NCBI GenBank assembly: GCA_003971905.1
Contig: RSEE01000006.1
Coordinates: forward strand, 124,001-188,000
Direction of reading: 5' to 3'
DNA length: 64,000 nucleotides
From: Moniliella sp. 'wahieum'
Taxonomy: Eukaryota
The position numbers were made by a program, and so were the translations under genes. Numbering within the stretch: the first letter of the stretch is position 1; each line of letters begins with the position of its first letter. The notes under the pieces were generated by a model that had not been told where the DNA came from, searched no databases, and saw nothing but the letters and a program-made list of their open reading frames with translations. Below, piece by piece: positions 88 through 59,806 of the stretch.

Positions 88-2243
88 ATGACCACTGCTC
101 CGTCGCAGGTCAAGAAGGATGCGCATCCATGGGACCGCGCTCTGCTCGAAGGGCTGATCACCAAGCGCTTTTTCTACAACCCCTCCTTTGAGATCTACGG
201 CGGTACGTGTCCCTTGTCATCTCTTGTCTGATCTCAGATCTCAGATCTCACTTCTCACTGGCCAGCCTGCGCCTCCCCCTGTCTGCCCACTCGCCTCCTT
301 CCGTTTCTTTGTTTCCTTGCTTTCTTTTGCCTCGCGGAGCGCTGACAGCCCGTCTTGCTCTGGTAGGTTCGGGGTCTGTACGACTATGGTCCGACGGGCG
401 CGGCGTTGCAGGCCAACATTATCTCCGAGTGGCGCAAGCACTTTATCCTGGAAGAGGACATGCTCGAGGTCGACCCGACCATCATGACGCTTGACGAGGT
501 ACTAAAGACGTCGGGCCACGTGGAGAAGTTCACCGACTTTATGTGCCGGATGTGAAGACGGGGACATTTTCCGTGCGGACCACTTGATTGAAGGGGTGCT
601 AGAGGCGCGGTTAAAGGGCGATGCGGAAGCGCGTGCGTTGGAACAGGGCAAGACGATTGACAAGTCGGCCGATGCCCGGACGCCAAGGACGACAAGAAGA
701 CAGCCAAGAAAAAGAAGATCAAGTCGACGGCGGTCAAGTTGGCAGACGAGACCAAGGCGGAGATTGAGTACGTGTTGGCGCAGATTGATAACTACACCGG
801 CCCGCAACGGGCGAGCTGATCACCAAATTTGCCATCCGTGCCCCCGAGACGGGCAACGAGGTGACCGAACCCGTCGAGTTCAATCTCATGTTTTCCACGG
901 AGATTGGTCCGACCGGGACGCAAAAGGGCTACCTCCGCCCCGAGACGGCGCAGGGCCACTTGTCAACTTTGCCCGCCTTCTCGAGTTTAACAATGGTCGG
1001 ATCCCCTTTGCGTCGGCGCACGTCGGCAAGTCGTTCCGCAACGAGATTAGTCCGCGGGCCGGGTTGCTGCGCGTGCGCGAATTTGTCATGGGCGAAATTG
1101 AGCACTTTGTTGATCCCGAAGACAAGAGTCATCCCCGCGCTTTGCCGAGGTGGCGCAGTTGACGCTACCGTGGCTGCCCAAGGCTACGCAAGAAGCGGGC
1201 AAGACGAGCTTACCTATGCTACCGTGGGCGATGCGGTGGCGCAGGGCATGTGCGACAACGAGACGCTGGGGTACTTGTTGCGCGGATCTGGCAGCAGTTT
1301 CTGGAAAAGATTGGCATGGACACGACCCGTATCCGTTTCCGCCAGCACATGCACAACGAAATGGCCCACTATGCATCCGACTGCTGGGACGCGGAAATCA
1401 AAACGTCGTATGGTGGATCGAATGTGTGGGCTGTGCAGACCGAAGCGCGTACGACCTTACGGTCCACGCTCGTACATAAGAAGGACCTCGGTGCACCAGC
1501 TCTTGACCGAGCCCAAGGTGTACGAAAAGTACATTCCTACTCTCAACAAGAAACTGCTCGGTCCCAAATTCAAAAAGGACGCCAAGGCAGTGGAGGAGCA
1601 GATTCTTGAGATGGACCAAGCCCAGCTCGAACGCTTGGCCCACGCCCTCCAAGCGTGCCAAGCCACGATCACCGTCGGTGGCCAAGAGCGGGAGTTGAGC
1701 TCGGACTTGGTCACGGTGGAGCACAAGACAGTCAAGGAGCACACGCGGACGTACGTACCGAATGTGATTGAGCCTTCGTTTGGCATGGGCCGGATTTTCT
1801 ATGCCTTGCTCGAGCATGCGTTTTGGTCGCGCGAGGAGGATGCGCAGCGTGGCGTGCTGAGTTTGCCTCCGCTCGTGGCACCGTTCAAGGAGCTGATCGT
1901 GCCCATTTCGTCCACCAAGGAGTTCCAGCCCTTGGTGCGCGAGGTGACGCGCAAGTTGCGTGCGGCTGGCGTCGCGAGCCGGGTGGACGATAGCAATGCG
2001 ACCATTGGACGGCGGTACTCGCGCAACGATGAGCTCGGCACCCCGTTTGCCTGCACCCTCGACTTTGCGTCGTTGGAGAAAGGTACGATGACGCTGCGCG
2101 AGCGCGACACCACGTCCCAGCTCATTGGCCCGATCGACGAGGTGATTGCGGTCATCAAGGGCTTGTCGGATGCCACATTGACCTGGGAAGAGGCCCAGAC
2201 GAAGTTGCCCAGCTATAGTGGCGAACAGGATGTACAGCAGTAA
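88..2243 (+). CDS. GRS1: Glycyl-tRNA synthetase (eukaryotic alpha2 type); intron ~203-366; several apparent indel frameshifts; possible in-frame upstream start at 4
   Basis: Peptides across frames: [133 protein letters not shown], and anticodon-binding [21 protein letters not shown]. Intron GTACGT(203)...GCTGAC...TAG(366). Confidence 0.95.
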
Positions 2244-2682
2244 GCTAACTCATCCCCTTTGTTCCTGTTCCTGCACCTGCACTGCACCTGCTCTTACTCC
2301 CTTTTGTTTCATTGTCTATCTTTCCCCATACCTATCATCGAATGCAACGCAGTGGTCGGTTGCTAGTAGTCTGTTAGAGGTACCCAACGTCCATCCAAGC
2401 ATGGGAACAGCATCAGGATATACAATTAGTCAAATCGAGGAGGAAGGATCTTAAACCGGGTGCAGAGACGTGGTGCGAGGGAAAGCGCGAAATAAGTACA
2501 CCCTGACACAAAGAAAAAAAGAAACGATGGACAAGAAAGCGGGGAGGAAGAAAAGAGGAAGAGGGAAGGGCATACACAACACCAAAGCGCGACACTGAAC
2601 CTGAACCTCAACGCAGTAGGAGACACAGTAGGGGGAGGAAGGAAAAAGGACGGGGGGGGGGGAGACAGGGGTCGTGCAGCCG

Positions 2683-4235
2683 TTACGCCCAGACGGGGTC
2701 CTGAATTTCGGGGCCTTGCCAACCGAGTGAACGACCCAGCCGAGCTTGCGCAACGCTAGCGGATTGACAATGTTGCGGCCATCAAACAGGAAGGCTGGCT
2801 TCTTGACACTCTGGTAATCTTGGCCCAGTCCAAGGAGCGGAATCGTCCCATTCGGTAATGATCACCACTGCCTCTGCGTCCTGGCACGCCTCCTCGGCCG
2901 AGGCGGCAATGTGGACCTGTTTTTCGTACAGGTCCGCATCGGACTGAACCCCGGGCTCGGTCAGGTCGAGGAAGATCTGGTCCCTGGACACCTGGGGTCG
3001 TAGATGGAAATATGAGCATTCTCGTTGCGGAAGGCTTTGCAGATACTGATCGCTGCCGTTTCGCGCGTGTCGCCGGTATCCTTTTTGAATGCAAATCCAA
3101 GCACGGCAATCTTCTTGTTGGTAATTGTGTGAACAGCGTCTTGATGAGACCTTGTTGGCGAAGCGATCTCTTGCTGTACTCGTTCATCTCCACCACTTGT
3201 GCCCAGTACGCTGCTACCTCGGGAAGACCCAGACTCTCTGAGAGCTGTGTGCAACAGTCAGTAGACCTCATAGAGAGGGAATGATGAATGAGAGAGAGGG
3301 AGGGAGGGAGAAGAAAGAAAGAGAAAATAGGAGAATGGAGACGCACGTAAACCAAGTTGAGGATGTCCTTCTGGAAACAAGAGCCACCAAAGCCGACGAG
3401 GCCTTGAGGAACTTGGGCCCAAATTCGGGCGTCGAGGCCGCATGCATGAGCAAACCTCTTCAACGTTGGCAACGGTCGCTCGACAGATGGCGGCCATGGC
3501 GTTGATGGAAGAAATGCGCTGGGCGAGAGGAGAGCGTTGGCGGCGAGTTTGGAGAGTTCGGAGGACCAAAGACCAGTGGTGTAGATACGTTGCATGGGGG
3601 ACCACAGTTGTTGTACACCTCGGCCAGGGCGGCGGCAGCCTTGGTGCCGCTCTCGCTGGGCAGGGAGCCAATCAAGACGCGTCGGGATTTTGAGGTCGGA
3701 ATGGCGGTGCCTTCGGCAAGGAACTCGGGGTTGGACAGAATGTCAAAACTGCAGGCCCGGGCGCGAGTTGGATTCGAGAATGACACGCATCGAGGCCGCG
3801 GTGCGGCAGGGCACCGTTGACTTTTCCACAATGATCTTGGAGCTCTCTGCGACGGCGGCGATGCGAGGGGGTAGAGGCGACATAGGCCAGGTCGGCAGCA
3901 AAGCCTTTGCCGACGCGGGACTTTTTGGTGGGCGTGTTGACGGAGACAAAGATGAGGTCGGCCGTCGCGGATGGCAGCGTCAATGTCGGTGGAGAAGAAG
4001 AAGGGTTGCGGCCGCGGCAGCTCTTGACGACGTGGTCGAGGCCAGGCTCGTAGACGGGCAGGTGGTCCGAGTTCACGCCGCAATGAGGGTGGGGTTGACA
4101 TCGACAATGGTGACCTGGATGTGAGGGCAGCGCTGGGCAATGACTGAAGGTGGGGCCGCCGAGTAGCCGGCGCCGATTGCCAGCAGATCTTGCGGGCGGC
4201 GGGCGGGTGGGGGACGAGGCGGAGGGGACGACCAT
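2683..4235 (-). CDS. UGD1: UDP-glucose 6-dehydrogenase; intron ~3245-3346; indel frameshifts
   Basis: [88 protein letters not shown] (catalytic Cys), [25 protein letters not shown]. Intron GTGCGT...TACTGAC...CAG. Confidence 0.94.
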
Positions 4236-4870: not shown

Positions 4871-4891
4871 TTAACGTTTAAGCTTAACTAG
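4871..4891. repeat. 7-bp periodic array TTA-ACGT-TTA-AGCT-TAA-CTAG
   Basis: Read directly: three different 4-bp palindromes separated by TNA triplets in register. Confidence 0.8.
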
Positions 4892-5171: not shown

Positions 5172-5254
5172 TCAAGCTTCAAGCTTCAAGCTTCAAGCTT
5201 CAAGCTTCAAGCTCAAGTGACTAGTCCTAGTCACTAGTCAAGCTTCAAGCTTCA
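5172..5254. repeat. Heptamer array (TCAAGCT)n with interspersed CTAG-core units
   Basis: Five perfect TCA-AGCT units at 5172-5206, then TGA-CTAG, then TCA-CTAG-TCA-AGCT-TCA-AGCT-TCA at 5231-5254. Confidence 0.95.
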
Positions 5255-5865: not shown

Positions 5866-7008
5866 TTACAAAAACGAGGACCCCGATGCGGCAAACCGAG
5901 TTGAAAGCGTGGCCGCCTCGGCAATCTTTTTCGCCTTTGCCGACTCGTCCAGCAACTTGCCCCGGCGCCCAAGGCCGCTTCGCGGTCCCACACAAAAGGC
6001 TGTGGCTGAGAGGAGGACGCGCGGGGAGAAGCGGACCGGTCTCGTTTCCGATCGCGGTCACTGCGAGACGGGTGGGAGCGGTGGGAACGATGGGAACGGT
6101 GGGAACGATGGGACCGCTCGGCTTCCTCCTTCGTCTCGCTATGGCGGGAAGAACGATGAGAGCGAGAATGGCGACCTTCCCTGTCCTTATCCTTCTCCTT
6201 ACCTCTCTCTTTCTCTTCCTCCCGGTCCCGGGACCGATGGTGGTCATGGCGATGACGGTGGCGATGCCGGCTCGATTCGTCTTTGCGGTCGCGGTCGCGG
6301 TCGCGGTTGACGCTGCCCCTGCACCTCGCTCCGTCTCTTCTCGCGATGCTGGTCCAAGAGGGACTGCGAACGGAAGGATCAAACCGTGAGATCTCATCAC
6401 GAAGAAGCTGGGTGCGCTGACGCTCCCTTGCCTCTTGGGACTGTGCGGCCAGGTCAGACCCGGCATGGACAGGGCGCTACTTCGCCCCGTACTTCGGCCG
6501 CTTCCCGCGCCTGGCGCTCGGCCGGCGTCTCGGTCCAAAGCGTCCCTGCGTCAGTTTGGGAGGAAATGCCAGAGCGGGACTGGACCCGTCCGGCTGGCCC
6601 CGCGGCCTGGGAAAATCCACGGTTCTTCAGCTTGAGCGGGTTCCCGATCACGGACTGCAAGTTGGGACCCGGGAGCGGCGTGAGCATCCATTCGTCTCGA
6701 GATGGGGGCGCGTTGGCTGCGTCCTGCTCGGCCTGGGGACAGTGAGTGGGGGTTAGCACTACGTATGGTTTGAGGTGAGTCATGGAAGAAAAAACACACC
6801 TGCCGTGCGGCGTGCATCCGTTCTTCCTTTTGGCGAAAGGCATGCTCGGCGGCATCCATCCCGGCGGGCGCGCGGGTGCCTGGGCGTGGGCGGTGCAGGC
6901 AAGGGGCCGACCTCGGGCTCGGAGCTGCTATCAGAGTGCTGGGAGGGCGATGCAGACCGGGGTGGGCCGTTGGGAAGCCAGGCCAGGCGGGAGGCTGGGG
7001 CCGATCAT
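5866..7008 (-). CDS. GPALPP1 / DUF3752-like protein; intron 6733-6799; frameshifted
   Basis: Start MIGPSLPPG (GPxLPP motif), RDEWMLTP...NPLKLKNRGF, LWTETPAER, and C-terminal WDREAALG..KLLDESAKAKKIAEAATLSTRFAASGSSFL*, the motif order I recall for DUF3752 proteins. Intron GTGTGT...GCTAAC...CAG. Confidence 0.7.
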
Positions 7009-7300
7009 CGCTGGGGACGATGTCGGTAGTTGCAGAGCGGGGGTTGCGCGTTACGCGTTACGACGGCCAGCAGCGGAATGGGAGTGGGCGGGGCTGCGGT
7101 TGAAAGTTTGCACAGGCGGGCGCTGGCGCCACCCAGAGGAAACTGCAATTTCAAACGAAACGGATTGGTGTGCGGCCGTGGGCGGCGCAACGCCGCTCGC
7201 TCCACCGCATCTGTCTTGGATTGGGCGCCTCCTCAGGCCTCACCACCACCACCACCGCATCCATCCCAGCCGCTCCTGGAGAGCCCGCGTTGAATCCACC

Positions 7301-10112
7301 ATGGCCACCACGGCGAATGACCCCGCATCGCCTCACCCTCTCTGCCCACCACCACCGCACCACCCCACCCCCGCCCCCGCCCCCCACCTTCCCCGCACAC
7401 GCTCCTTGCGCAAACAGGCGCGCGCCGCTGGCCGCCGCAAGACCTCCCCTCCCCGCGCTCGGACCTGCTCCACGAACAGCCTCCTCCTCCGCTGCCACCC
7501 GCATCTCCCACGCTATCCTTGTACTCCTCGCCCCCCGCCGCGACAGTGCCCGCTAGCCTCGCCCGCCTCCCCCCTCCTGTCTCTAGACCCGCCGCCAGCC
7601 CCAGCCACCAGGGCCGCCCTCTGCACCCCACCGGTCCGGACACCTCGGCACACAACGCAACCACCAGGGTGCGACTGCGGACTTTCCCTGCGCCTGCATT
7701 ACCGATGTTTCGGAGCGGTGCCTCCCGCCCTAGCTCTGTCAGTTCCGATGGGGACACAACTCGCAACAGCTTTTTCAGCGCCGGTCACGCTAGCTTGCAC
7801 TCGCCCTCTACTCTCTCTATCGACCAGGACCATAACGGTGGTACGATGGGCCAGGGAAGGAATCACCACCAATCCCTGCCAAGCCCAGTACACCCGCATC
7901 GGACTCGCGTCACGTAGTCGACGACGCGCCCCAGTCCCATGATGTCCGACCCGAAGTGGCGATACTACCGCAACCCCCACACCCCAGCATGGACTGTTAC
8001 CCTCCAGTCCTGGCGATGAGGGGGGCGATTTGCAATCCAGGGAGAATAGAGACGAGCCCCTGTCGAGGCAACCGGGCACGCCAACCGTCCACCCCGAAGC
8101 ACGACACAACACGGTCTTTTCCGCCGGTCTCGAGGATGAGGAGGAGACAACTCTTTCCGTATCCACCGACCTACCCCATCCCACTCGAGCACCTACTTTT
8201 GTTCAAAGCCCCGACTCGATGCCATCAGCCTTTATGTTCCCTGATTTGACCTCGCCGACGCTAGACGCGTCGCCCAATCCGCTGTCGCTCCAGCCAGGGC
8301 CGGGCACAGGAGATGCGGCGTTCTGGGACATGGTCCTAAGAGGTACGTGAACCATCATTTTCTGGCGGTGCGTTCCGTGTATTAACCTTGGCCTGCGATT
8401 AGACTACCAGCGCGTAGCATGGCCGAGCCGGAACGCCTTGCGCAAGCTATTCAACAGGGCATCCTTCCCAGTACCGAGGAGCCTTGTGGCGTGAAATGAG
8501 CGCCAGTCGAGATGCGGATCTCGAGGCCAAGTTCCACGAATACCTATCCGAACCCAGCGACCAGGACGAGGCGATCCAGCGAGACCTGGCAAGATGTGCA
8601 GATGAGCTGCCCTACTGATGATCCTGCCCAAGGCCAGCAGCAAGTGTTCCAGGTGGTCAAGGCGTATGCGATGCACGATCCAGAAGTGTGCTACCGCCCG
8701 GGCTTGCAGTTCCTGGTGCGCCCCTGTTACTGGTGATGAGAGGCCGAGGCGTTTTGCACCCTGGTAGCACTCATGCGCACCTACAACCTCCGTGGCCACT
8801 TCCTATCTGGCATGCCGGGTCTGAAGCTTCGGCTGTACCAATGTTCTCGCCTGGTGGAAGAGGAGTTGCCGCAGCTGTATGCCCATCTGGCCCGGAGTGG
8901 AATCAAGTCGAGTGCCTATGCTTCGCAATGGTTTATCACGCTGTTCTGCTACCATGTCCTCTCCCCGTTGCCTACCGTGTGCTGACACTGTGTTTGCTGA
9001 GGGCGTGGATGCGCTGTTTCGGTTTGTCTTGGCGTTGCTTGCTGCGTACGAACGAAGGCAGGTACTCACCTGGGTCCGCATGAGACGGTGTTGTTCCTCA
9101 AGAACAACATGTTTGACGCCTACCACCTCACGCCGTCGTCGGGATGGGAAGGGGACTTGGCTGCGGTGGACAAACTGGTGCAAGATGCCGAGGCGGCACG
9201 AGATTGGGCGAGCGTAGCTCGTCTGAACCAGTACGCGACCGAGTTTCAAACCACCCTGGAACGAGCCTCGATGCCGTTGCAAGAGATGGAGTCGCTGCGG
9301 CAGGCTACCTGGCACCTCGCTGCCCAAGTCAAGGAGATGGAGGAAGACATGGCCCGCCGCCAGTCGGCGCACATGGAGCTGGCACAGCAAGTGTCACATG
9401 CTACGCTGCAGAAAGACGAGGTGGCAGAACAGTTGGTGCACTACAAGACCCTCTATGCCGAAGCGGCCCTGGCTCTGGAACAAGCAACGCTATCTCCGCC
9501 CCCACAGCCGGCGCCTGCGCCTGCACCGGCACCAGCACCTGGCTGGACCAGTTGGGCCACCCGAGCTCGTACCTCGACCCCCGCCTCGCGCTTGTCGACC
9601 GCCAGCGCTTCGACGGCCGTGTCCCATTCCAGTCGGTCCACCACCACCACCTCCCCGTCCTCCGCATCGCGCCCGAACCAGCTTGCCCTCGTCCCACACC
9701 GTCGCCCAGTCCGTCTCCTCCGCCATGGCGTCCTGGGGACGTTGGATGTCGCGCGAAGCACGCCGGCCCCCCCTGCGCCTACACTGGACAAACCTCTTCC
9801 CAATCCGAATTCGAACCGACTCTGAGCCCGGCACAGTCCTTGACGCCACCGCCGTTGCCGCCACGCAAACTACCCCCTCTCCCGGTCCGCACGACCCTTG
9901 GTTCAGCCTCCCCCCCACCCCCCCTCCCCACTGGCTCCACCGCCGTCGGTGCGATGAGTGTAACTCCCTCCGAGGCCGAGGGGGAGGACGCAACGCCGAA
10001 CGGCAGTCCGACCGCTAGCCGCGGCCGAGCGAAAGTGGTCACAGTCTCAGTTCCGAGATGGAGTCGGTCAACTTGCAGGTATCGACCGAGGGAGTTGAGT
10101 GTTCAACGTTGA
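7301..10112 (+). CDS. TBC-domain Rab GTPase-activating protein (Gyp5/EVI5-like) with coiled coil and Pro-rich tail; intron 8343-8402; 3' end approximate
   Basis: FWDMVLR|DYQRV, IQRDLAR (IxxDxxR finger), VFQVVKAYAMHDPEVCY..GLQF, LRGHFLSGMPGLKLRLYQ, LPQLYAHL...YASQWFITLF, DTVFAEGVDALFRF. Confidence 0.85.
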
Positions 10113-10544
10113 ACGTTGACGTTCAGTTGACCGTTGAGGCCCCAAAGGCGAATGCGGAATCTGTTTCCATGCCAGAAGGCTTGGCTGTGCCCTAGTATTG
10201 GCTGGAGTCCAATATCCAATGGCGATCGCATGCCGAACGATTGCATGTATGTTGTACCGTAGACCATTTGTCGGTTTCTGGTCGTGGGTGCGTATGGGAG
10301 GTGTGTGCGGGACTTCGAGCCAGTGTGCTCCACTTAGCCGGACAAGACCGGCGATGGAGTTGTGCTTTGTCCGTGCCCCTCGAACGCGGATGGTAGCGCC
10401 AGGTAGTTGACTGTAAGCGTCAACTTGTACATCTACTACGCCACACCCGACTGAATCCCGTCAGGAATATACCGGCGGGGACATTGCAGGGCATGTGATT
10501 TCTACAGTGGTGCCGTGCTCGATCACAAGTCCTCTCCAACCGCT

Positions 10545-12129: not shown

Positions 12130-12413
12130 ATAGATGGTGGGGGCCTCCTAGTTTTTGATCAGACATTGTTCACGAAGATTATACGCTTTTCGCCTCCAAT
12201 CTCTGACATCTGAACCCTGAAATTCCTTATCGAAGAAGTGTGAAAGACTCCCAAGTGACAGCGCCACAAGAGCCCCGTCACGCGTTAGTACTCAATCTGA
12301 GTACTGAACTCAGTATTCAGTACCGGTCACCCTATCTCTTCCCCACAAATTAAGATACACCCCACAGAGACTTGACTTAATGTTCTTGGTTTTTGGTTGG
12401 ACAACAGAACGGA

Positions 12414-12951: not shown

Positions 12952-13544
12952 TCAGCAGTCAGATTGATCAGGGCTGATAATATGTGGATAAATGGTGTCC
13001 CTGTGGCTTGTTTTCAGCCTGTGCGGTTGGGTGGCTGGCAAAGGCCCGCTCAGGCCTTAGGACGCTTCCGGACACCAGGTCTCCTCGTCCCTCCTATTGC
13101 TTTGTGGGAACACGTGGTTCCCAACGACCTACTCCGCAACGAAACCAAGAGCCAAAATCGATTATTTGAATGTTGCTCCATGACAAGTACGTAGAAAAGT
13201 GGGCGTCTAACCTTTTTTCGGCACATATACCCCGCTGCCCGGGCGGCCGTCCAACTCCGTTGATCTTCATCGGGGAAGGGCGGACAGGGACGTCGGACTT
13301 CCACCCCCTGCCAGGACTCCACCTCTCGCTCGCAGTTCCTTGGGCTTGAGTACGCGCGTCGTGTGTACCCCTCGGGACTCGACGACCTGGTAGGGCAGAT
13401 GCTATCGCAACGTAGAAGAGTAGAAAAGGCAGAATACAGACCCCCCTGTTGCGTCCAAAAAGCGCCTCATCTCCCCCCCCCAATCCCCCCTCCTCGAGAC
13501 CATCTAAGATCCCCCACCACCGCTTCCCTCTTCTGTCGCCCTTG

Positions 13545-44430: not shown

Positions 44431-44532
44431 AGGGGGCAAGGGGAAAGGCACAAGGCGCAAAACACGGACGGCGTGGATTGTGCAGGAGGATGGGAGTAGG
44501 GGAGCTCAGGCCAGTCAGGGCAGAAAAGCTCA

Positions 44533-47578: not shown

Positions 47579-49417
47579 TCAGGTGGGCATCATGACGTTG
47601 GCAACAGCCACCAGCTCATTTTTTTGCCCTCGAACATATCCGTTGTCACCTCAGGATCCGGTTGTGAATTTTGCACCCATTCAAGCGTCTGGTTGATGGC
47701 AGTATCCAACGCCTTCTCTCCCAGCGCCCCACGTTATTATTTTCTTTTAGAGAGGCGCGCAGGTCATACGCATACTTCTCTAATTCCATGGGGCAGCATC
47801 GCGCTGTGGCGGAGTTCATCGTCTGCTGCTTGTACTTCTCCGCATCAGAAATCATCCGCGCAATGTCATCCTTCGACAGATGGCCGCTGTTCAAGATGGT
47901 GAGAACTCCGAAATGTCGGTTTCCAAAATGGGACTGACACGGTGAGATTGGAGTTGGCGTCCAAGTCAAACCTCACTTCCCTATGCGAAGCACGAGGGGC
48001 AAGTGGGATGTCAGGAAGTAGACATTCGCCCAGAAAATGGTTGTCCTCGGTGCGGGGTCGCTCCCCTTCGTATACTTTGACCAGCACGCTACTCTGATTG
48101 TCGAGTCTGGTCGAGAAGACATTCGACCCTCGGGCAGGCAGAGGCGTGTTGCGGTCGATCAGCGACTTAAATTGACCACCGCCAAATTGAATCCCCAAAG
48201 ATAGAGGGACCACGTCAAGTAGAACCAGGTCCGTGATTCCCACTGGCTCCTCTTCTTCATCTTCATCCAGAAAGGACGCCTGGATTGCGGCACCGTGAGC
48301 CACTGCTTCGTCGGCATTAATTGAGCGGCTGATTTTGCTTTCGCCAAAGAAGTCAGTGAGGAAGTGCTGCACACGAGGAATCCTTGTTGACCCTCCAACC
48401 AAGACACGTCAGTCACGTCATCTTTGTCAACCTCGGCATCTTGTAGGACGCTCTCGAGGAGGCTAACGCCACGCTGAAACAGATCGTCGCACAAATCCTC
48501 AAAGAACGGCCGGGTGATAGAGGAGACAAAGTCAATGCCGTCAAGCAGCGAGTCGATTTCGATCGCAGCGTAGGTCGCGGAGGAAAGGGTACGTTTCGCG
48601 TTCTCGCACGCCGTGCGGAGACGACGAAGAGCACGAGGGTTGGAAGTGAGGTCCTTATTAAACTTGCGTTTGAATTGATCAGCAAAATGGTCGACGAGAC
48701 GGGTGTCAAAGTCTTCACCACCGAGGTGGCTGTCTCCATTCACGGCCTTGACTCGGAATTGGGTCCCGTTGAGGGTGAGAACCGATACGTCAAGCGTCCT
48801 CCCCCAAAGTCAAACACAAACACGGTGCGCTCACCCTCAGGCTCGTTGTCCAAACCGTAAGCAACGGCGGCGGCAGTTGGCTCGTTGATAATGCGCGCAA
48901 GACGTTGAGCCCAGCAATGGTACCAGCGTCCTTGGTCGCCTGGCGTTGCGAGTAACTAAAGTAGGCAGGTACCGTCACCACAGCATCCTTTACAGGCCCG
49001 CCAAGGTACGCCTCGGCCGTCTCGCGCATCTTGATCAAAATCATGGACGAAATTTCCTCGGGCTTGAGCTGCTTCGTCTCGCCCTTGTATTGGACTTCGA
49101 TTACTGGCAGACCGTCCACATCAATCACCTTAAATGGCCACTGCTTCATGTCAGACTGGACCACCTCTTCGTCAAACCTGCGGCCAATAAGTCGTTTGGC
49201 GTCAAACACGGTATTGGATGCGTTCATCGCAATCTGATTATGGGCCGCATCACCAATCAGCCGTTCCCGCTCGTTGAAGGCGACACAGGAGGGGTGACAT
49301 TCCTTCCCACTTCGTTGGGAATGACTTTGACCCGGCCATTCTGAAAGACAGAAACGCACGAGTGGGTGGTTCCAAGGTCGATGCCAATCGCGGGGAGGGT
49401 TGGGGGGAAGAGGACAT
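47579..49417 (-). CDS. Hsp70 paralog A: cytosolic-type NBD, divergent SBD, no EEVD
   Basis: [133 protein letters not shown]; ends ...[15 protein letters not shown]. Confidence 0.9.
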
Positions 49418-49884
49418 TTCGACCGAGGATAGGTACGACTTGCTCTTGTGGAGTGGAGGGGAGACGGCGTAGTGTTGGTTGTGGAGGGATGCATCCCAAA
49501 AGGTAACTGTCACAAAACGCACATATATATAGCAGTGGCGCACCCCTTTGCATCTATATATCCTGGTGCGCTGGGATGATCGATGAGTCCGGAAGTGCAC
49601 CCCTGTGGCGCAACGCCACTGAATACTATTAATATGCGCCCAAAGCACTTGTCGTCGTCCTCTCTCTGCCTGCCTTTCTGGATTTGTGTCATACATGCCA
49701 ATTTGCCGCCAATAACGTCATCATCAATGTTATCGATGCTGGCGTGTCAGGCACCTCTTCCATGAAGATTGTTTGTTCTGGTACTTGACCCTAGCTTGAG
49801 ACTAGCTTGAGTAATACTCGGAGCCGCATCAAACGTATGTCCATACACACGCCATCAATCATCGATCGCCGACTAATATAATGG

Positions 49885-51047: not shown

Positions 51048-53148
51048 CCCTGGTGGCGCCCCTAAGTAACCCCGCAAGATGAACGGTTAGGTTTAGACGT
51101 AGCGTTCCCCCTGTCCCAGCCTTCTTAAGTCTGCCAATGAAATGGAAGTTACTAGAGATATCACACACCACTCACTACAGTTTCGATGTTTTGTTCACTG
51201 GTGTCACTTCGCGCTCTCCCACAGCTTTTCTCTCGCGGTTGTTGTATGGCTCCTCTCTGCAGTGCCCTTTTGCCCTGTAGAACAAGCTCTCGTATACCAT
51301 CTGCTATAGAGGCGTCGCCATGCATAGCGGGCAATCCTATTATAAAACCAGTGCAGTCACCCATTGCTGTCAGAGGCAAAACTCCCACACTGCACGCAGC
51401 TCCCTGCTGTAAGTCAATATACGCGCATCAATGATTCCTCATCTCTTCCATAGTCTCATCACGGTGTACTCCACTCCGGGTGAGGCTCTGACAATCCAGG
51501 GGATCTTTTTCATATGCTCTCTCGGACTTTATAGGCCAGTGGAGAATCGAAGTGGTGGTGGTCATATAGTGGTTCTGTTTGAAGCACGCACACCCCGTGT
51601 GATCATGTTGATAAGGGGGGGGAAAGAAGCGCATCGTCGACTACGGCAATGCCCCTGCCGTTTTTATTGTATCGGTTTAGTACGTTTATCAGAGGAGGAG
51701 CCCAATAGTGGTACGTGTTCCTACAGCGTTTCGCTCATGAACAACCCCTCCCAGTACTAGAAGGCCAGCGCAACCTCTTCTCCGACGGTCCCGTTGTCAA
51801 TTCTACTAATGAAGAACTGAGAGTATTGACACGATTGACGCTTTCGGAAAAGCAGCATGATACACATCTCTGGAAAGGAGCGTTTGTCCCACACAAGGGT
51901 ATAGTTCCATGCCCAACAACCATAACATATTTGCCCAGGAGAATACAGAGTGTATGTATAGGGGGCCAGGGTGATGCAGGTGATGACATGGTCAAGGCAA
52001 GGCATTATGGCCCTTACATCCGGAGTAGTGCCGACCGCGTTTCGGGCTTACGCATTAGCGCTTCCGTCCGAACCACAAAAAGAGGGTGAGCAAACGATGG
52101 TGAGACAGGAGTTACACACACACGCAGTCACGATGGACACAAGGGGTGTGGTCTGTGCGCTTGCCGGCCGGGGGTAAGAAGAGGGTTTTATATCGCGCTT
52201 CAATGCGTTGGGGAGGCGCAGAAACGCAGCCAACGCGTGCCCGTGCACAGGAAGCTGCGTTCTCTCACCAGTAGCACCAGTTTTCCCCAGTTTGCTTCAA
52301 GCTTCATCGATCATCTCTCCGCATGTGTCTCAAGTTCCACACATACGTTCCACAAGCTTCACTACACGGATACAATAATCCGGCTCACTCTCCCCTTGTG
52401 TCGCTCTCTCTAAATCAATCATTAACCGCGGTTCTCATGAGATGTGACATGCATGACATGTGATACTTATACTGTGCCCCTTTTTCAAGTCAACAGAGAG
52501 AGTATGGTTAAATTAAAAAAAGGTTATCGGTTACCGATGAAGCTGATGAAGCTATGTAGAAAAGGCAAGAGCGCAGGGACAGTTGATGGTGTCGTATTGC
52601 ACATTGCACGTGGGGCTACAGAGGCTCAAGAATATTCCTGCCCTCCACAGTAGAGGAATATTGGAAGGAATGAACCGGAAGGTTCAGGCCCTTGTGTGGC
52701 TATCCGCGCTACCACACCACAGTGTGGCGTCACAAGTTGGTGAAGCTTCGTTTTCGCCTGGCTTGATTAGCTTGATCATATTATCTATAGCCGAGAGACG
52801 ACAGTATATATGCATAGTGTGGTAACAGTCGATTTGAGGACATCATGCTGTGAAGACGAGACAATTCGGTGATGCCGATGATCGTGTGAAGAGAGTCCTG
52901 ATATGTGACAGAGGGGGGTCTTTTCGACCGCTCTTACAGAGGTGTTAGGAGAACTCATCTAGTTTTGCTTCCAGTTTCCAGGGGAGAAGAGGAAGAATGA
53001 AGAAGAGCAAGGGGAAAAAGAGAAAAGAAAAGAGAAAGAAGAAAAGAAAGGAGAAGGACGAGAAAAAATATTGGCGTGTATTGGGTTCCACCAGGAAACA
53101 CCTGTGACCATCGATATAGTACAGGTGTACAACAGAGGGTGGGCACCA

Positions 53149-55024
53149 CTAATAGAAATGCCGATCGGCGCGGTGATATCCAGAGCTCTGGCCTCGCAGC
53201 TCAACTTCCTGCATGATGGGATCTGCAATGGACTGCAGGTTCCTTTTCATTTCCTCATACATCTCCTTTGAAGCCTGCTCCGTTGGGCACTGTTCCTGCC
53301 ACACAAACGACTGGTTGATCGCCTCTTCCAGGACCTGCCTTTCGCTTGAATGGAGCTTGCCCACAGTATCATGCTCTTCCAGCCAGCGACGCATACGGCA
53401 GGCGTACAAATCCAACTCATTTCTGGCTTTAATCCGTGCCTCCGCTTCTTGATCATTTTCTTGTACTTCTCCGCCTCCGACACCATGCGGGCAATGTCCT
53501 GCCTCGACAGGCGACCGCTATTGGTGATGGTCAAATCGCCTGCGAATTCGTCTTCTGTTCAACGGCCGACACCTTGAGAATAGAGTCGGAGTCCAAATCA
53601 AACGTCACAATAAACGAAGACACACCACGGGGAGAAGTCGGGACGTCAGTGAGCGTGAAATCGCCCAGAAAATGGTTGTCAACGGCGCGCGGCCGCTCAC
53701 CCTCGTACACGGGAATAGTGCCGGAGATCTTCTGACGGCGTTGGCTATAAGGCAACGTTTGGAAGAATCGCCACGACTTGGTGGGCAATGTTGAATTGCG
53801 TTCAATCACAGCACTGAACCCACCACCCTTTATTCCAATACCCAAAGATAGGGACCACATCGAGCAGAATCAGTTCCTGGTTCAACTCGGTCGGGCACCC
53901 TCGAGAATAGCAGCCTGGATGGCGGCGCCATAGGCAACAGCCTCGTCGGGGTTGATTGAGCGAGAGTGAGTGTGCGCCCGTCAAAGAACTCCGTGAGAAG
54001 GCGCTGCACTCGAGGAATCCTTGTTGACCCCCCAACCAAGACAACGTCAGTCACGTCATTTTTGTTAACGTTCGCGTCTTGCAGGACACCCTCAACAGGG
54101 CCAATAATACGGGCAAACAGGTCTTTGCACAACTCCTCAAAGAGGACCGGCTGATAAGGGCGATAAATCAATGCCCTCAAATAGACAGTCGATCTCGATT
54201 GTGGTATGTTCAGCCTCCGAAAGACTGCGCTTCGCGCGCTCGCAACAAGTACGGAGGCGACGAGAGCGCGAGGGTTAGATGTGAGGTCCCTGCTAAATTG
54301 CGTTTGAATTCTTCAACACAATGGTCGACGAGAGGGTGTCAAAGTCTTCGCCACCTAGATGGTGTCACCGGAGATGGCCTTGACTTCAAATTTCCCCTTT
54401 GTAATCTCAAGCAACGATACGTCAAAGGTACGCCGCCAAAGTCAAAGACGAGGACAGTGCGTTTATGTTCAGGCATGGTGTCCAACCCGTAAGCAATAGC
54501 AGCAGCTGTCGGCTCGTTGATAATGCGCAAGACGTTCAGCCCAGCAATGGTACCAGCGTCCTTGGTTGCCTGGCGTTGGGAGGTTGAAGTAGGCAGGTAC
54601 TGTCACCACAGCATCCTTTACAGGACCGCCAAGGTAGGCCTCGGCCGTCTCGCGCATCTTGATCAGAATCATGGACGAGATTTCCTCGGGAGTGAAAATC
54701 TTCGTATCGCCCTTGTATTGGACTTCAATTCCCGGCTGACCGTCCACATCAACCACCTTGAAAGGCCAGTGCTTCATGTCAGACTGGACCACCTCATCGT
54801 CAAATCTGCGCGATAAGTCGTTTGGCATCAAACACGGTGTTGGATGGGTTCATGGCAGTCTGCGCGAACGCCTCCTCACCGATAAGCCTCCCATGTCGTT
54901 GAAGGCCCATAAGAGGGGGTGGTCTTTAAGCCAAGGTTGTTGCGAATGATCGTGGCCCCGTCGCCCTCATGAATGGAACACATGAGTAGGTGGTGCCAAG
55001 ATCGATACCGATTGCTTTGGTCAT
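53149..55024 (-). CDS. Hsp70 paralog B: cytosolic-type NBD, divergent SBD, no EEVD
   Basis: [127 protein letters not shown]; ends ...[26 protein letters not shown]. Confidence 0.9.
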
Positions 55025-55132: not shown

Positions 55133-55153
55133 TCGACAGATGCCCTTGCCAAT

Positions 55154-55330
55154 TGTCACAGTCGGGGCTAAGGCGAGGGAGACCAGGATCGGACTAGGCC
55201 AAGGGGTGTAGCAATCGTTCGTGGGGAAGAAGCAAGAACAGAGGACATGGTGCGAAGTGGAAGGAACAGGGAAGGAGCGAGACGCTCGAGAAGAAATTGG
55301 AATGGGAGCGAGATCAGCCAAACTATGACA
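55154..55330 (-). repeat. 3' LTR
   Basis: Starts TGTCACAG and ends ATGACA on the plus strand; direct repeat of 58635-58811. Confidence 0.95.
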
Positions 55331-55343
55331 TTGCCCCCTTTCA
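55331..55343 (-). other. Polypurine tract
   Basis: Minus strand reads ...TGAAAGGGGGCAA immediately before the 3' LTR (TGTCATAG). Confidence 0.75.
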
Positions 55344-57281
55344 GACCTCATCTCCCGGGCGGCGACGGAGGCGAGAGAGGGCGAGTCGGCGGGCATGGGA
55401 GACAGGCTTAGGGGGAGAGGCGTGGAAACGGACCACTGGCTCGGCGTCATGAGACATGTCCGCAGCGGGTACCCACTCCCGCTCGTGGACAGGATAGCCC
55501 CGGAAGTGAACAAAGTACTCAATGCGGCCACCACGACCCTTGCGGCGAGAGTCGAGGACATGTTCAACCTCGTGATGAACCGCACCATCATCAGCATACT
55601 CGGGGAGAGGAGGCGGGGGCTCAATCAAGCGGGCAGGGACCACGTCACCAGGGGTGTAGGCTCGCAAGCGGGACACATGGAACACGTCATGGAGGTGTAG
55701 GTAGTCGGGGAGGCGGACCTGGTATGCGGCGCGGCCCACGGCGCGGACAATGGGAAAGGGGCCGAGGTAGCGATAGTCGAGGCCGTCAGAAGGCCGCTGG
55801 CTGGCCACATAGCCGTCCCGACGGACCAAGACAGGCTGGCCAGCAGTGAAGGAAGCCGCCTCGGTGCGCTGCTGATCGGCTAATGCTTGTAGCGGTCCTG
55901 GGCCGCGGCGAGCGTGCGGCGGGCCACCGCCTGGGCCGAGCGCAAGTCCTCCAAATATGGCGCAGCATCGGGCACGGGCGAAGTGGAGGGCTCCACCCCC
56001 CGGGGAGAGTAACCATAGGTGAGGACAAAGGGGGACTGGGGGTGCTCGAGTGGGAGGACGAGTGTAGGCGAATTCGGCCGTGGGGAGGGTCGAACCAGTT
56101 GGACTGCTGCTCGTCGAGGTAGCAGCGGAGTACTGTTCGAGGATCTGGTTGAGTCGCTCAGTCTGGCCGTCCGTCTGGGGGTGGGACGCGGTGCTGAGGC
56201 TCGACTTGATGCCCAAGTCGGCACACAAGGCTTGCCAGAAGTGGCTTGTGAAGGTCGGTCCCCGATCACTCACCAGATCCCGGGGAAGGCCATGGTAGCG
56301 AAAGACATGGTGTACAAACTGGCGTGCGAGCTGGGGCGCAGTGTCCGTCGTGTGGGCGGGAATGAAGTGACCCATTTTGGTACAACGATCCACCACCACC
56401 AGAATCGCGTCGTAACCATTGGATCGGGGAAGCTGGGTAATGTGGTCCATCGTCAAGTGGGTCCACGGGCCTTGGGGAGGGGAAAGGGGCTGAAGGGGTC
56501 CGGCGGGTTGGTGGCAAGGCGCTTTGGTCCGTTGGCAGCGGTCGCACGAGCGCACGTAGGCCCACACGTCGGCTGACAGGCGGGGCCACCAATATTGAGC
56601 GCGGACACGGGCCAACGTCTTGTCGCGCCCTTCATGGCCCGCCAATGCCGAGTCGTGGGCTTGGTGGAGAATGGCAGCGCGGATCGGCCGGTCGCCGGGG
56701 ACGTAGACCTGGTTTCCGTGCCACAAAAGACCGTCGCGGACCGTCAAAGCATGGGGAGGTGGGCTTGGAGCCGTAGCAAGGGACCAACGAGGGTCACGAG
56801 GCACGAGTTGGCGGATGCGCTGTCGAATCTCGTCGGCAGACGCTCGCTCCACCACCGGTGTATCGGGGTCCGCCGCCATGAGCTTGAGGGCGGCGGCAGA
56901 ACGTTCGGACATGGGCTCCGCCAGTACTTGAGGTGCCGCGCCAGCGGGCCGGGAGGGAACCGAGGAGGGAAAAGGAATCGAGTTGACAGAGGGGGGCGAG
57001 ATGGGGTTAGATGAGGAGGTGGACTTGGGCCGGGGCCCGGGCGAGTGCTGGTGCTGGTGCGTAGTCTTGGTCTTGGGCTGGTCTGGGTGCTGGGGCTGGT
57101 CTTGGGGCTGGGGCTGGTCTTGGTGCTTGGGCTGGTCTTGGGGCTGGGGCTGGTCTTGGGGCTGGGGCTGGGTTTGGGGCTTGGGCGGGAGTTTGGGGCT
57201 TGGGCGGGAGTTGGGGCTTGGGCTGGGCTTGGGGCTTGGGCGGGAGTTGGGGCTGTGGCCGGGGTCAGTCGTGGAAGGCAT
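55341..57281 (-). CDS. Pro/Gln-rich linker + integrase (HHCC, DDE core, GPY/F) + chromodomain
   Basis: HDSALAGHEG...YWWP...CDRCQRTK; WTHLTMDHITQLP, ILVVVDRCTKMGHF, HGLPRDLVSDRGPTF, HPQTDGQTERLNQ; YLGPFPI...HDVFHVSRL; chromodomain HEVEHVLDSR...EYFVHFRGYP..EREWVP. ATG at 57281, 7 nt after the gag stop. Confidence 0.92.
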   Translation of the reverse strand: MPSTTDPGHSPNSRPSPKPSPSPNSRPSPKLPPKPQTQPQPQDQPQPQDQPKHQDQPQPQDQPQHPDQPKTKTTHQHQHSPGPRPKSTSSSNPISPPSVNSIPFPSSVPSRPAGAAPQVLAEPMSERSAAALKLMAADPDTPVVERASADEIRQRIRQLVPRDPRWSLATAPSPPPHALTVRDGLLWHGNQVYVPGDRPIRAAILHQAHDSALAGHEGRDKTLARVRAQYWWPRLSADVWAYVRSCDRCQRTKAPCHQPAGPLQPLSPPQGPWTHLTMDHITQLPRSNGYDAILVVVDRCTKMGHFIPAHTTDTAPQLARQFVHHVFRYHGLPRDLVSDRGPTFTSHFWQALCADLGIKSSLSTASHPQTDGQTERLNQILEQYSAATSTSSSPTGSTLPTAEFAYTRPPTRAPPVPLCPHLWLLSPGGGALHFARARCCAIFGGLALGPGGGPPHARRGPGPLQALADQQRTEAASFTAGQPVLVRRDGYVASQRPSDGLDYRYLGPFPIVRAVGRAAYQVRLPDYLHLHDVFHVSRLRAYTPGDVVPARLIEPPPPLPEYADDGAVHHEVEHVLDSRRKGRGGRIEYFVHFRGYPVHEREWVPAADMSHDAEPVVRFHASPPKPVSHARRLALSRLRRRPGDEV

Positions 57282-57288
57282 ATGGTGA

Positions 57289-58594
57289 TCACGGCACTGC
57301 GCCTTGAGCGCGGCGCTCGGTGCGCCGGGCCGCCGCTTCAGCGGTGGCGGTGACTGCGCTGAGGTCCATGGGCTCCGCTTCGGGCGACGAGGGCCGAAAC
57401 CAATGATTGCCGCCCGATCCCGGGGAGATGGCGGTACCATGAGCGCCCAGCGATTGCGATTGGTCGATGTCAATGGCCGCTGTGCGCAGTTGTTCGAAAC
57501 TGATCCGTCCCAAGTGAGCCGACTCGCCGCGGGAGGCGATTGCGTCACGCACCCGCGGCTTCAAGCCGTACAGAAAGCAATAGTAGCGGTCCTCATCCGA
57601 CGCGTTGGGGTTCCAGCGACGCAGCAGAACCGTGAACGTAGCGGAATAGTCCGCTGCAGATCCCGTCTGCCGAAGACGACGAAACTCCTCAAACGCCTTC
57701 AGCGCCGGGTTGCGCTCGCCCCACTGCTCCAGGAAAGCTGCGCGAAACGCAGGCCAAGACTGGAGGGCGGGTGTGGTGCGCGCCTCCAGGGGAAGGGCCA
57801 CCTCCGAGCCGAACTGCTCGACCCAAGTGAGGGCCCTCTCCCTGCAGCAGGCCCATGAAGCGGTCGATCCATGCCGCCGCGCCCATATGCGTGAGGGCGA
57901 CGCGCGCGTAAATCTCGAAGGAGGTGACGACGTGCTGGGCCTGGACCCGGTCACGAGAGTTGGGATTCGCACCAGACGACGGGCGGAAACGAACGGGCTC
58001 GAACATCTTAGGCTCTTCCGACACCGTGTTCGGGATGGCAGTCAGATCACCATAAGGCCCAGGGGCGGGAGCGGGGGCGGGGGCCGAGGACACCACGCCA
58101 GTTTGAGCCTCCCGTACCGAGGCGGCCAACCGGGCCTCTTCCGCGGCAAGCGCCGCCTCCTCCTGCCGCTGACGGAGGCGGTGCTCACGGCGCTTCGCCT
58201 CTTGCTCATCCTCGAAAGCGCGGCGCTTCGCCTCTTGCTCATCCTCGAAAGCGCGGCGCTGGTCCTCCTGGGCTGCAAGGTAGGCCTGATTTTCCGGGCC
58301 TCCGTCAACAGAAGCTGGCGCATTCTGCGGGCCTCATCGACCCGACGCTGAGCGGCCTCGAGGCCCAGCCCGACAGGTCGGAGGCAGGCAATGTATACCC
58401 CGGGGGCGCGGCGCAACAGACGGAGCTGCATGGGGGGTCCAGAGGGGCCAGCCGGGTGGAACCACTCCGGGCCATCGTCGTCGAACGGAGCGTCAGAGGG
58501 GGGGTCGGACGGGGTCGGATTGGGCCGCGCCGCCGATGGGTTGCGGCGCGCTAGGGTTACTGGGGTCAGGGGGGTTGTCGTGGATCGAGGACAT
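57289..58594 (-). CDS. Retrotransposon Gag (capsid); no CCHC knuckle seen; frameshifted
   Basis: LQGEALTW (joined across one indel), SWPAFRAAFLEQWG, EFRRLRQTGSAADYSATF, FLYGLKPRVRDAI, LRTAAIDID, EPMDL; likely start MSSIHDNPP at 58594. Confidence 0.85.
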
Positions 58595-58624
58595 CTCTGG
58601 TCGGGCTCGCCTGTTGACGGTTAG

Positions 58625-58633
58625 ACGAACGAT
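58625..58633 (-). other. Self-priming-type primer-binding site
   Basis: Minus-strand ATCGTTCGT next to the 5' LTR is the exact complement of ACGAACGAT inside the LTR (58694-58702). There is no TGG tRNA-type PBS. Confidence 0.75.
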
Positions 58634-58634
58634 A

Positions 58635-58811
58635 AGTCACAGTCGGGGCTAAGGCGAGGGAACCAGGATCGGACTAGGCCAAGGGGTGTAGCAATCGTTC
58701 GTGGGGAAGAAGCAAGAACAGAGGACATGGTGCGAAGTGGAAGGAACAGGGAAGCGAGACGCTCGAGACGAAGAAATTGGAAATGGGAGCGAGATCAGCC
58801 AAACTATGACA
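58635..58811 (-). repeat. 5' LTR
   Basis: Direct repeat of 55154-55330, followed by TSD CCAAT. Confidence 0.95.
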
Positions 58812-59806
58812 CCAATATTACAGAGCCACTGCGGCATATGCCATTTACATATTATTGTTTTAGGTTACCGTCGCCAGCTGCGCTGAGTGGGCGCTGCCTG
58901 TTGATATGGGAAACCCTGGCGTGGGTTGCGTTTCAGTATCCTAACTAGTAGTATATGGGATCGAATTCGGTCTGCGTTCACCAGGTCCTCGCGTATGCTT
59001 CCGTCGAACCTCGTCACGGACCGCTCACGGATCAAGCTCAAGCGCAATAAGCGCATCGTCGTCGATTATCGATGAAAACCGACTTCTCCTCTGTGGAGAG
59101 GGGGATAACATGCCTGGGCTCCCGCATTTGTTTAGAATCATGTCCTTGCGTGTCGACCGATCCACTCAATCCACAGGAGGTATTACTACCGGTCGATCAC
59201 CGATAACACCATGACACGTTATAGTAGTTGTGCTTTGTGGAAAAGCAGAACACTCTACTACTTTTCTAGACGCAAAACTTTCACGTTGGACAGCTATAAT
59301 TTGAGATCTGACGGTAGCTTAATGAGCAGGAATGAGGTTGCGATGGAGTAGAGCGAGAAAAGAGCGTGGCGGTAACAAGGAGGCAGGCAACTAGCACAGG
59401 AGGAAAGAAGATTGAAGAGAAGGAAGCGGGGGCTGCGCGCGCCAAGCGCAGCGGGCGCGGTGCAGCCCCGTACAGGTGCCGGTGCGGGGGTCCGGCGCCA
59501 GTTAGGCACAAGCTATTATCGAATCATTAGTACCTTCCACACCTGAGGCCTGACATACAACACAAAGTAGGTGTCGTATGTCACTCAGCCCCTAAAACCG
59601 GTTTTGTTACGCCGCCGAACGAAACCCCATGCCTCGCCGCTAGGATGTTGTTGGACTCGTCGCTGCTCTCATGTTTCATTAGACGCTACCTTTACCTCTG
59701 ACTGTGTGGGCAGATATATGTATGTGTGTTGCAACCCGTTTCGTCCTACTACTAGGTAGAACCCTCATGTAATAATCCACAGCACTGCGCCCGCTGCTTC
59801 GCCTCA

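Follow-up and report, generated by a model that had tools for sequence, protein, structure and literature searches.

The window analysed here is a stretch of 64,000 nucleotides (64 kb, 59% G+C) from Moniliella sp. 'wahieum' (GenBank assembly GCA_003971905.1, contig RSEE01000006.1, positions 124,001 to 188,000 of the forward strand), and all counts refer to this one window unless stated otherwise. The genes recognised with Pfam were those for RICTOR, an HR1 repeat followed by a protein kinase, a Sec7/PH protein, topoisomerase I, two Hsp70 copies, an aspartyl protease, Nop14 and a DBP8-like DEAD-box helicase, together with a Ty3/gypsy chromovirus. The closest named matches of the DBP8-like open reading frame (ORF) were from Tilletiaria anomala (63% identity) and Pseudozyma flocculosa (62% identity), and two further proteins in the protein collection matched it at 88–91% identity. 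These matches identify the source as a basidiomycete of Ustilaginomycotina type. The subject of this study is a short pattern that recurs in the window, in which two TNA triplets enclose a self-complementary tetramer. A unit was defined as T.A-pal4-T.A, where pal4 is a self-complementary tetramer (the core), and an array as units chained 7 bp apart.

An exact count gave 67 units, which form 47 arrays, comprising 35 single units and 12 multi-unit arrays. A previous sequence-only reading of the window, made by hand, had claimed about 60 units at about 40 loci, with 14 of the 16 palindromic tetramers in use and TATA and TTAA absent. The exact count agrees with these figures, all 16 example loci that it quoted are present at their positions, and the 14 core types are used fairly evenly. 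In 200 dinucleotide-preserving shuffles, 6.00 ± 2.59 units were expected (maximum 15), and 100 shuffles inside 500-bp blocks gave 6.6 ± 2.65. Expressed as a proportion, 67 of the 158 T.A-N4-T.A sites (42%) have a palindromic core, and the corresponding fraction for the 15 other X.Y flank types ranges from 3.3 to 8.6%. When the same triplet stands on both sides, the core is palindromic in 25 of 53 sites for TCA, 19 of 42 for TGA and 4 of 9 for TTA, compared with 90 of 1857 for all non-T.A triplets together. As an external control, a metagenome scan with the DBP8-like ORF yielded 80 unrelated loci (820,717 bases; top identity 46%), which were used only as a negative control; there, 209 of 3338 T.A-N4-T.A sites were palindromic (6.3%), close to the expected 1/16.

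The enrichment is restricted to one spacing. Palindromic spacers between T.A triplets numbered 67 against 9.9 expected at a length of four, 18 against 21.2 at two, 2 against 1.6 at six and 0 against 0.3 at eight. The distance spectrum of TCA and TGA combined shows 95 pairs at spacer 4 and 18–35 elsewhere, save at spacers 3 and 6 (48 and 47 pairs, where most control triplets are raised too) and at spacer 11 (45 pairs). Palindromes as such are at background in the window, the 4-, 6-, 8- and 10-mers all lying at most 4% off the maximal-order Markov expectation. The enrichment reported in the sequence-only reading thus holds against non-palindromic cores, shuffled sequence and other spacings, and these counts confirm that the TNA-palindrome-TNA pattern is real and very strong. 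Microhomology was rejected as the cause of the T.A requirement; A.T, G.C and C.G would be equally favoured, yet they are unenriched.

The units are located in non-coding DNA, as had been claimed. None of the 67 lies in the Pfam-supported ORFs (18,451 bases), compared with 13 of the 91 non-palindromic T.A-N4-T.A sites, and only 10 of the 47 arrays lie where the codon-phase GC periodicity is above a threshold that is itself exceeded over 50.6% of the window. Two spacers are particularly dense, with 14 arrays in 19.4–21.1 kb and nine arrays in 26.9–29.1 kb.

The two TNA triplets of a unit are direct repeats. Their central N is identical in 50 of the 67 units (CC in 25, GG in 19, TT in 4 and AA in 2) and complementary in nine; since the triplets are direct and N is mostly identical, a duplicated target site fits the arrangement. 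A dimeric factor reading TNA half-sites, which had been offered as one explanation of the pattern, predicts inverted TCA...TGA pairs and is contradicted both by these counts and by the copying of flanking bases into the core that is described below. More generally, the units could be selected cis-elements, either bound by a dimeric factor through TNA half-sites at a 7-bp spacing or acting as a DNA-structural signal, and such a role would suit their strong enrichment in spacers and possible promoters, their strict spacing and the largely intact state of the units. We find it scarcely credible, because the half-sites are direct and not inverted, the adjoining bases determine the core, a dependence for which a binding site has no cause, and nothing is conserved past T.A; for a cruciform or nucleosome signal, no feature of the units needs it. 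The direct half-sites and the flank-copied core likewise distinguish the units from dyad-symmetric transcription-factor sites. Two further candidates were rejected, namely half-sites of basic leucine zipper (bZIP) factors, which have the wrong arrangement, and stop codons kept in all frames by selection, which would leave the palindromes unexplained. Some of the units may have been co-opted secondarily.

The core of a unit is tied to the bases that adjoin it. In 24 of the 47 arrays the dinucleotide that precedes the first TNA is identical to the last two bases of the core (form B), and in 16 of the 47 the dinucleotide that follows the last TNA is identical to the first two bases of the core (form A), with 6 and 8 arrays in the swapped-relation controls; overall, the core matches a flank in 34 of the 47 arrays. 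The 35 singles comprise 13 with an upstream match, nine with a downstream match, two with both and 11 with neither. Permutation of the cores (20,000 trials) gave a mean of 5.1 matching singles and a maximum of 14, against the 24 observed. In the matching arrays, one half of the palindrome is the adjoining host dinucleotide and the other half is its reverse complement. A typical single therefore reads ab-TNA-b'a'-ab-TNA, where b'a' is the reverse complement of ab, or the mirror form TNA-cd-d'c'-TNA-cd, which amounts to a 5-bp direct repeat with two nucleotides between the copies. The exact period-7 tract of the singles accordingly has a sharp mode at 12 nt (15 of 35), equal to the 5-bp repeat plus 2 nt. 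This 12-mer signature occurs 53 times, compared with 0.31 ± 0.58 times in 100 shuffles and 0.15 times in 20 shuffles, and versions that differ from it by one mismatch occur 65 times against 7.95 ± 2.8 in shuffles; for any other X.Y class, both 12-mer forms pooled reach at most 8.

The repeat is sometimes longer than 5 bp. Of the 91 T.A-N4-T.A sites whose core is not palindromic, six are clean tandem duplications of 7 bp in which TNA occupies positions 3–5, compared with about 0.36 expected at a rate of 1/256. Clean duplications are found for TC-TCA-CT (246–259, with TNA central and a non-palindromic junction), GA-TCA-AC (14900–14913), TC-TCA-CA (27349–27362), TT-TCA-TC (33818–33831) and CA-TCA-CG (59805–59818), and a 7-bp tandem duplication in which N differs, GG-TCA-CG followed by GG-TGA-CG, lies at 28395–28408. 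An apparent identity of position 6 with the base after the second TNA in one-off units (6 of 14 sites) was discarded, as it reduced to three clean-duplication loci counted on both strands. Among the multi-unit arrays, all cores belong to the two flank-predicted kinds in 8 of 12, and the mixed arrays at 5231 and 52297 are among these eight.

The near-even use of 14 cores had seemed irreconcilable with transposon termini, and the flank-core relation resolved this difficulty. It also divides what the sequence-only reading had proposed: symmetry and spacing are indeed conserved, but the core is not freely interchangeable, being tied to the flanking dinucleotide. A transposon excision footprint had been its third alternative, and the kind of explanation is retained here, but not the particular form, a 3-bp duplication around 2 + 2 bp of element termini. 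Cores derived from transposon termini would be few, fixed and independent of the flanks, and 14 flank-tied kinds are seen, so the termini version is unsupported; moreover, from the 5-bp modal repeat and the six clean 7-bp duplications it follows that the duplicated target is longer than 3 bp. Duplications of 3 bp with the sequence TNA or TWA are typical of IS5 and PIF/Harbinger elements, and such a duplication, combined with a Tc1-type remnant of two plus two terminal nucleotides, would account for TNA as the direct repeat and for a remnant that is exactly 4 bp long and palindromic. This explanation is nevertheless highly improbable, given that 14 kinds of core are in fairly even use, that the core copies the host flank in 24 of the 35 singles, and that the repeat reaches 5 or 7 bp.

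We consider it probable that the units are scars left by the excision of a cut-and-paste DNA transposon that forms hairpins on the flanking DNA and uses a 7-bp nnTNAnn target, and that they are not functional sites. What can be read directly in the sequence is the enrichment of palindromic cores and its specificity, the repetition of TNA in direct orientation, the dependence of the core on its flank, the limitation to spacer 4, the peak of the singles at 12 nt, the presence of clean duplications and the position in non-coding DNA; from these we infer the transposon itself, its hairpins and a stagger of 7 bp and not 5 bp. Integration at the symmetric nnTNAnn with a 7-bp staggered cut would place the host heptamer ab-TNA-cd on both sides of the element. 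During excision, both flanking ends would be covalently closed into hairpins with the geometry of RAG and Transib, the tip lying exactly at the end. A host nuclease would then open each hairpin 2 nt off the tip, so that the left end would carry the self-complementary 4-nt overhang cd-d'c' and the right end the self-complementary overhang b'a'-ab. End joining that retains one overhang and loses the other would yield ab-TNA-b'a'ab-TNA-cd or ab-TNA-cdd'c'-TNA-cd, with a net gain of exactly 7 bp. A new insertion at either TNA of a scar would add units whose cores are limited to the two palindromes set by the original flanks, and would thereby produce 7-bp-periodic arrays with one or two kinds of core, some of which slippage would later extend. 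The clean heptamer duplications would represent the unmodified double target, that is, the product without palindromic (P) nucleotides.

Several properties of the units are accommodated by this excision model. The flank logo, covering 10 nt on each side of the reconstructed targets, showed no preference beyond T.A, and a consensus consisting of T.A only is as expected for a weak symmetric target. Scars would persist only in non-coding DNA, and their absence from coding DNA is attributed to the 7-bp gain, which shifts the reading frame and adds stop triplets and would thus ruin it. The 67 perfect units compare with about 17 above background that have one core pair broken, and this high ratio of intact to one-off units points to a recent or continuing process and suggests that the scars are young on average.

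Other observations weigh against the excision model. Everything rests on a single 64-kb window, in which neither a transposase gene nor an element with terminal inverted repeats and a TNA-centred duplication was found. Searches of the window for intact elements, with TNA and 8-nt inverted termini or with 5-, 7- or 8-bp duplications and 10/12 inverted termini, returned only array-internal or chance pairs. With no transposon in the window, the agent has to be deduced from its scars, and these reach a density of one array per 121 bp beside no transposon copy. Thirteen of the 47 arrays, among them the 11 unmatched singles, show no flank match, and the multi-unit arrays at 4871, 12278, 14422 and 28193 hold unpredicted cores. 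The product in which both overhangs are kept (TNA-pal4-pal4-TNA) occurs in no case, and TNATNA, in which both are lost, is at baseline (30 for TCA and TGA combined), so the model must assume very uniform repair. The scars by themselves cannot separate a 7-bp from a 5-bp duplication. Their palindromes are even-centred and those of Ac/Ds are odd-centred, so the best-documented fungal candidate superfamily misfits in detail.

The length of the duplicated target is the point on which a close relative of the excision model differs. RAG and Transib hairpins have their tip exactly at the flank end, and Transib duplicates a 5-bp target. A Transib-like duplication of 5 bp (ab-TNA), with one flank hairpin opened at the tip and the second one 2 nt away from it, would give the modal structure directly, as this is exactly a 5-bp direct repeat plus two P-nucleotides, and the even-centred palindromes have the geometry of RAG/Transib-type hairpins. 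We regard a 5-bp target as unlikely, however. The T.A bases at positions 3 and 5 would make an asymmetric target, which is odd for a dimeric transposase, and clean duplications of 5 bp (TNA-ab-TNA, spacer 2) stay at the baseline level (27 for TCA and TGA combined), in contrast to the excess of clean 7-bp duplications (6 against 0.36). A target of 7 bp is favoured over one of 5 bp by the symmetric form of nnTNAnn, by the six clean duplications of 7 bp and by the missing excess at spacer 2.

The scars might also have been written with no mobile element at all, by a host or domesticated nuclease that makes staggered cuts around TNA and leaves hairpins at the ends for repair. The lack of a transposon in the window, the very high and local density of scars and the unusual uniformity of the repair products would suit such an enzyme, although we know of none of this kind. 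We judge this distinctly unlikely, because a duplicated target adjoining P-nucleotides is the textbook mark of insertion followed by excision, and because a filled-in staggered break yields clean duplications only, which are a minority here (6 against 53 P-type 12-mers). Staggered breaks made by topoisomerase II or Spo11 were rejected, as they would yield tandem duplications and not palindromes.

Replication slippage was weighed in the same way. If the units were heptanucleotide microsatellites, consisting of hairpin-prone 7-mers shaped by slippage and quasi-palindrome correction, the singles would be contracted arrays. The window does contain 41 exact period-7 tracts of at least two copies, compared with 10 of period 8 and nine of period 9; clear expansion is seen in some arrays of mutated units, such as CCA-ACGT at 19408 and TCC-ACGT at 28602; and N flips to its complement within arrays (9 of 17 differing pairs). 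We nevertheless regard this origin as very unlikely. The singles have 1.4–1.7 copies with a sharp mode at 12 nt, not at 14 nt or more, and whole-unit copies are present in some arrays only. Lone TNA-pal4 heptamers number 220 against 157 expected, an excess of 63 that is no more than the 67 units explain, and the specificity for T.A is left without an explanation. Slippage adds only whole existing copies and therefore cannot make two inverted nucleotides. Near-miss arrays with CCA-ACGT, TCC-ACGT or TGG-GCGC units lie at 19408–19423, 20474–20487, 28602–28623 and 28161–28176; they look like TNA units that first mutated and later expanded, with slippage acting on scars already formed. Period-7 repeats that lack the TNA-palindrome structure are also present, such as ACGAAGA, AGGAAAG and GGCAAGA (7.6 copies), at 15166–15197, 21742–21767, 44379–44431 and other positions.

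Flanking-DNA hairpins are an established route of excision. According to passages of PMC5499845, hAT, Transib, RAG and a Mutator-like element (MULE) form hairpins on the flanking DNA during excision, and enzymes of the host then open them. For Ac/Ds in yeasts, the accessible passages of PMC5873905 describe footprints with short palindromic P-nucleotide insertions, at most 3 nt long in Candida albicans and centred on the complement of the base adjoining the element, and report these footprints as heterogeneous, with 28 types in 128 Candida events. The units of the window are like flank-hairpin footprints in general (Ac/Ds, other hAT elements, Transib, the MULE Muta1 and the coding-end chemistry of V(D)J recombination) in having a duplicated target and short palindrome arms that are the inverse of the flank. 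They differ from those of Ac/Ds in that one product dominates, with two P-nucleotides on one side, 2 nt lost on the other and a net gain of 7 bp, and in that their palindromes are centred between bases. Compared with footprints at single donor sites, the window shows an accumulation of scars on a genome scale, from which the element is deduced. P-nucleotide footprints are already well known from such donor sites, and what is unusual here is the scale and uniformity of the scars and a heptamer target centred on TNA.

Individual superfamilies were compared with the units in turn. The target duplication of hAT elements has the 8-bp consensus nTnnnnAn; the palindrome found here, b'a'|ab, has an even centre, and the net gain amounts to 7 bp. 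An odd-centred parse of the hAT type was rejected, because N would have to flip between the copies and is unflipped in 50 of the 67 units. Length alone is no bar to hAT, as hAT families with 7-bp duplications exist. Transposons with 7-bp duplications in Basidiomycota are described in the accessible part of PMC12730594, namely hAT7 in Pucciniales and Kyakuja in Agaricomycotina, and that part contains no report from Ustilaginomycotina. The 7-bp duplication, the phylum and, for hAT, the formation of flank hairpins are points of likeness with the window, but the odd-centred hAT geometry is unlike it. PIF/Harbinger elements duplicate a 3-bp target only and excise mostly precisely; here the repeat extends beyond TNA in 24 of the 35 singles, and TNATNA is unenriched. 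A Tc1/mariner footprint consists of the target TA, terminal nucleotides of the element and a second TA, the model behind the third alternative of the sequence-only reading; Plasterk (1991) is cited in PMC5499845. Both it and the units have a direct target repeat around a short palindromic remnant, but the Tc1/mariner remnant comes from the fixed termini of the element, whereas in the window the host flank supplies the remnant, of which there are 14 kinds.

Related fungi offer a further comparison. Repeats of 10 bp in U. maydis have been suggested to be "TE footprints" (TE, transposable element), according to passages of PMC4081816 that name Laurie et al. 2012 and Schirawski et al. 2010. They agree with the units, as far as those passages describe them, in length (TNA + 4 + TNA = 10 bp), intergenic place and suggested origin, and U. 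maydis belongs to the same subphylum as the window, judged by the closest named matches of the DBP8-like ORF. The two may be the same thing, a comparison made through the citing descriptions only. Tandem repeats account for 11.24% of the P. flocculosa genome in the accessible part of PMC4824034, and this content may be related to the scars of the window. The literature searched, with most subscription journals outside it, contained no description of a TNA-N4-TNA motif, and none of its papers contains the string TNANNNNTNA, TCANNNNTCA or TGANNNNTGA.

If the units are excision scars, the apparent regulatory grammar of the window is a mutational record. Each unit would correspond to one insertion and one excision and would store the target site, the position at which the hairpin was opened and the joining choice of the host. 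Past cut-and-paste activity could then be counted in genomes that look nearly transposon-free, such as those of many smut relatives, and a concrete source would be given for part of the spacer DNA and of its period-7 tandem repeats. The 10-bp "TE footprints" of U. maydis would gain a testable identity, and caution would be needed before palindromes enriched in promoters are called binding sites. A more specific version can be put forward only tentatively: a transposon that forms hairpins and is highly active but low in copy number, or a domesticated nuclease descended from such an element, might have written thousands of uniform 7-bp scars in the spacers of this Ustilaginomycotina genome, using a 7-bp nnTNAnn target not described before. 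Were this so, scars would exceed elements by orders of magnitude and form a measurable share of the non-coding DNA, they would seed period-7 repeats and account for the 10-bp repeats and the high tandem-repeat content of smut-like fungi, and the genome would keep a legible fossil record of transposition and of its hairpin-opening and end-joining preferences.

The multi-unit arrays outside the dense spacers illustrate the range of structures. A two-unit array, tc TCA-GATC-TCA-GATC-TCA ct, lies at 234–250 and is of form B, its core being the reverse complement of the upstream tc followed by tc. At 4871–4887, both cores of TTA-ACGT-TTA-AGCT-TAA are without a flank match. The five-unit array (TCA-AGCT)x5-TCA at 5172–5209 is of form A with downstream ag, and was probably also lengthened by slippage or re-insertion. 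It is followed at 5231–5254 by the three-unit mixed array ag TCA-CTAG-TCA-AGCT-TCA-AGCT-TCA ag, in which both cores are flank-predicted. The array gt TCA-ACGT-TGA-ACGT-TGA at 10103–10119 is of form B. A cluster at 12278–12307 consists of cg TCA-CGCG-TTA-GTAC-TCA and, from 12298, TGA-GTAC-TGA; its first core corresponds to the upstream flank and the GTAC cores are unmatched. In gt TAA-ACGT-TAA-GTAC-TAA at 14422–14438 the first core is of form B, and in the mixed array ct TCA-AGCT-TCA-TCGA-TCA tc at 52297–52313 each core is given by its own flank.

Among the single units, form B is represented by cc TCA-GGCC-TCA (7233–7242), gt TGA-ACGT-TGA (33444–33453), ca TCA-TGCA-TCA (33724–33733), ga TCA-TCGA-TCA (46458–46467) and ga TGA-TCGA-TGA (49577–49586), and form A by TCA-GGCC-TTA gg (13050–13059); both flanks match in cg TTA-CGCG-TTA cg (7051–7060). 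Three singles occur within 59066–59553, of which ga TTA-TCGA-TGA (59066) and cc TGA-GGCC-TGA (59544) are of form B, the third being TGA-GATC-TGA (59302). No flank match was found for TCA-ATAT-TCA (35828–35837) or TGA-CATG-TGA (52454–52463), nor for three singles in which N also differs, TGA-GATC-TCA at 6387–6396 and, within 47159–47224, TTA-GGCC-TGA (47159) and TCA-ATAT-TAA (47215).

The densest tract is a 1.6-kb spacer at 19425–21024 with 14 arrays, one per 121 bp, of which 11 match a flank; the arrays start at 19425, 19518, 19688, 19758, 19914, 20047, 20085, 20416, 20453, 20531, 20593, 20702, 20724 and 21015. The second dense tract, at 26945–29027, occupies the spacer between the Sec7/PH gene (minus strand) and the topoisomerase I gene (plus strand) and holds nine arrays, seven of them with a flank match, which start at 26945, 27059, 27344, 27616, 27653, 27815, 27856, 28193 and 29018.

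Within arrays, N flips between G and C at 20724–20747, 28193–28223 and 10103–10119, and 9 of the 17 units with differing N are complementary; these flips look like quasi-palindrome correction or template switching in hairpin-prone arrays. Units with a CGCG core (7051, 12278 and 20416) generate ACGCGT hexamers. ACGCGT is the fungal MluI cell-cycle box, and CGCG-core scars could accidentally create regulatory sites.

The Ty3/gypsy chromovirus lies on the minus strand at about 55154–58812, directly upstream of the second Hsp70 copy, and comprises gag and an integrase with a chromodomain. Its long terminal repeats (LTRs) of about 177 bp (TG...CA) are located at 55154–55330 and about 58634–58812 and differ by a few small indels, none of them of 7 bp in this short target, and no Pfam match to reverse transcriptase or protease was found for it among the window ORFs of at least 150 amino acids. 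The tandem Hsp70 paralogues, at 47829–49182 and 53460–54810, are 5.6 kb apart and 73–90% identical in their aligned blocks, and both are broken into several ORFs by introns or frameshifts. A Pfam match to NAD-GH (PF10712) lies at 48892–49341 on the plus strand, opposite to the Hsp70 gene; this family is known for matches to the antisense frame of Hsp70 genes, so the hit is probably not a gene.

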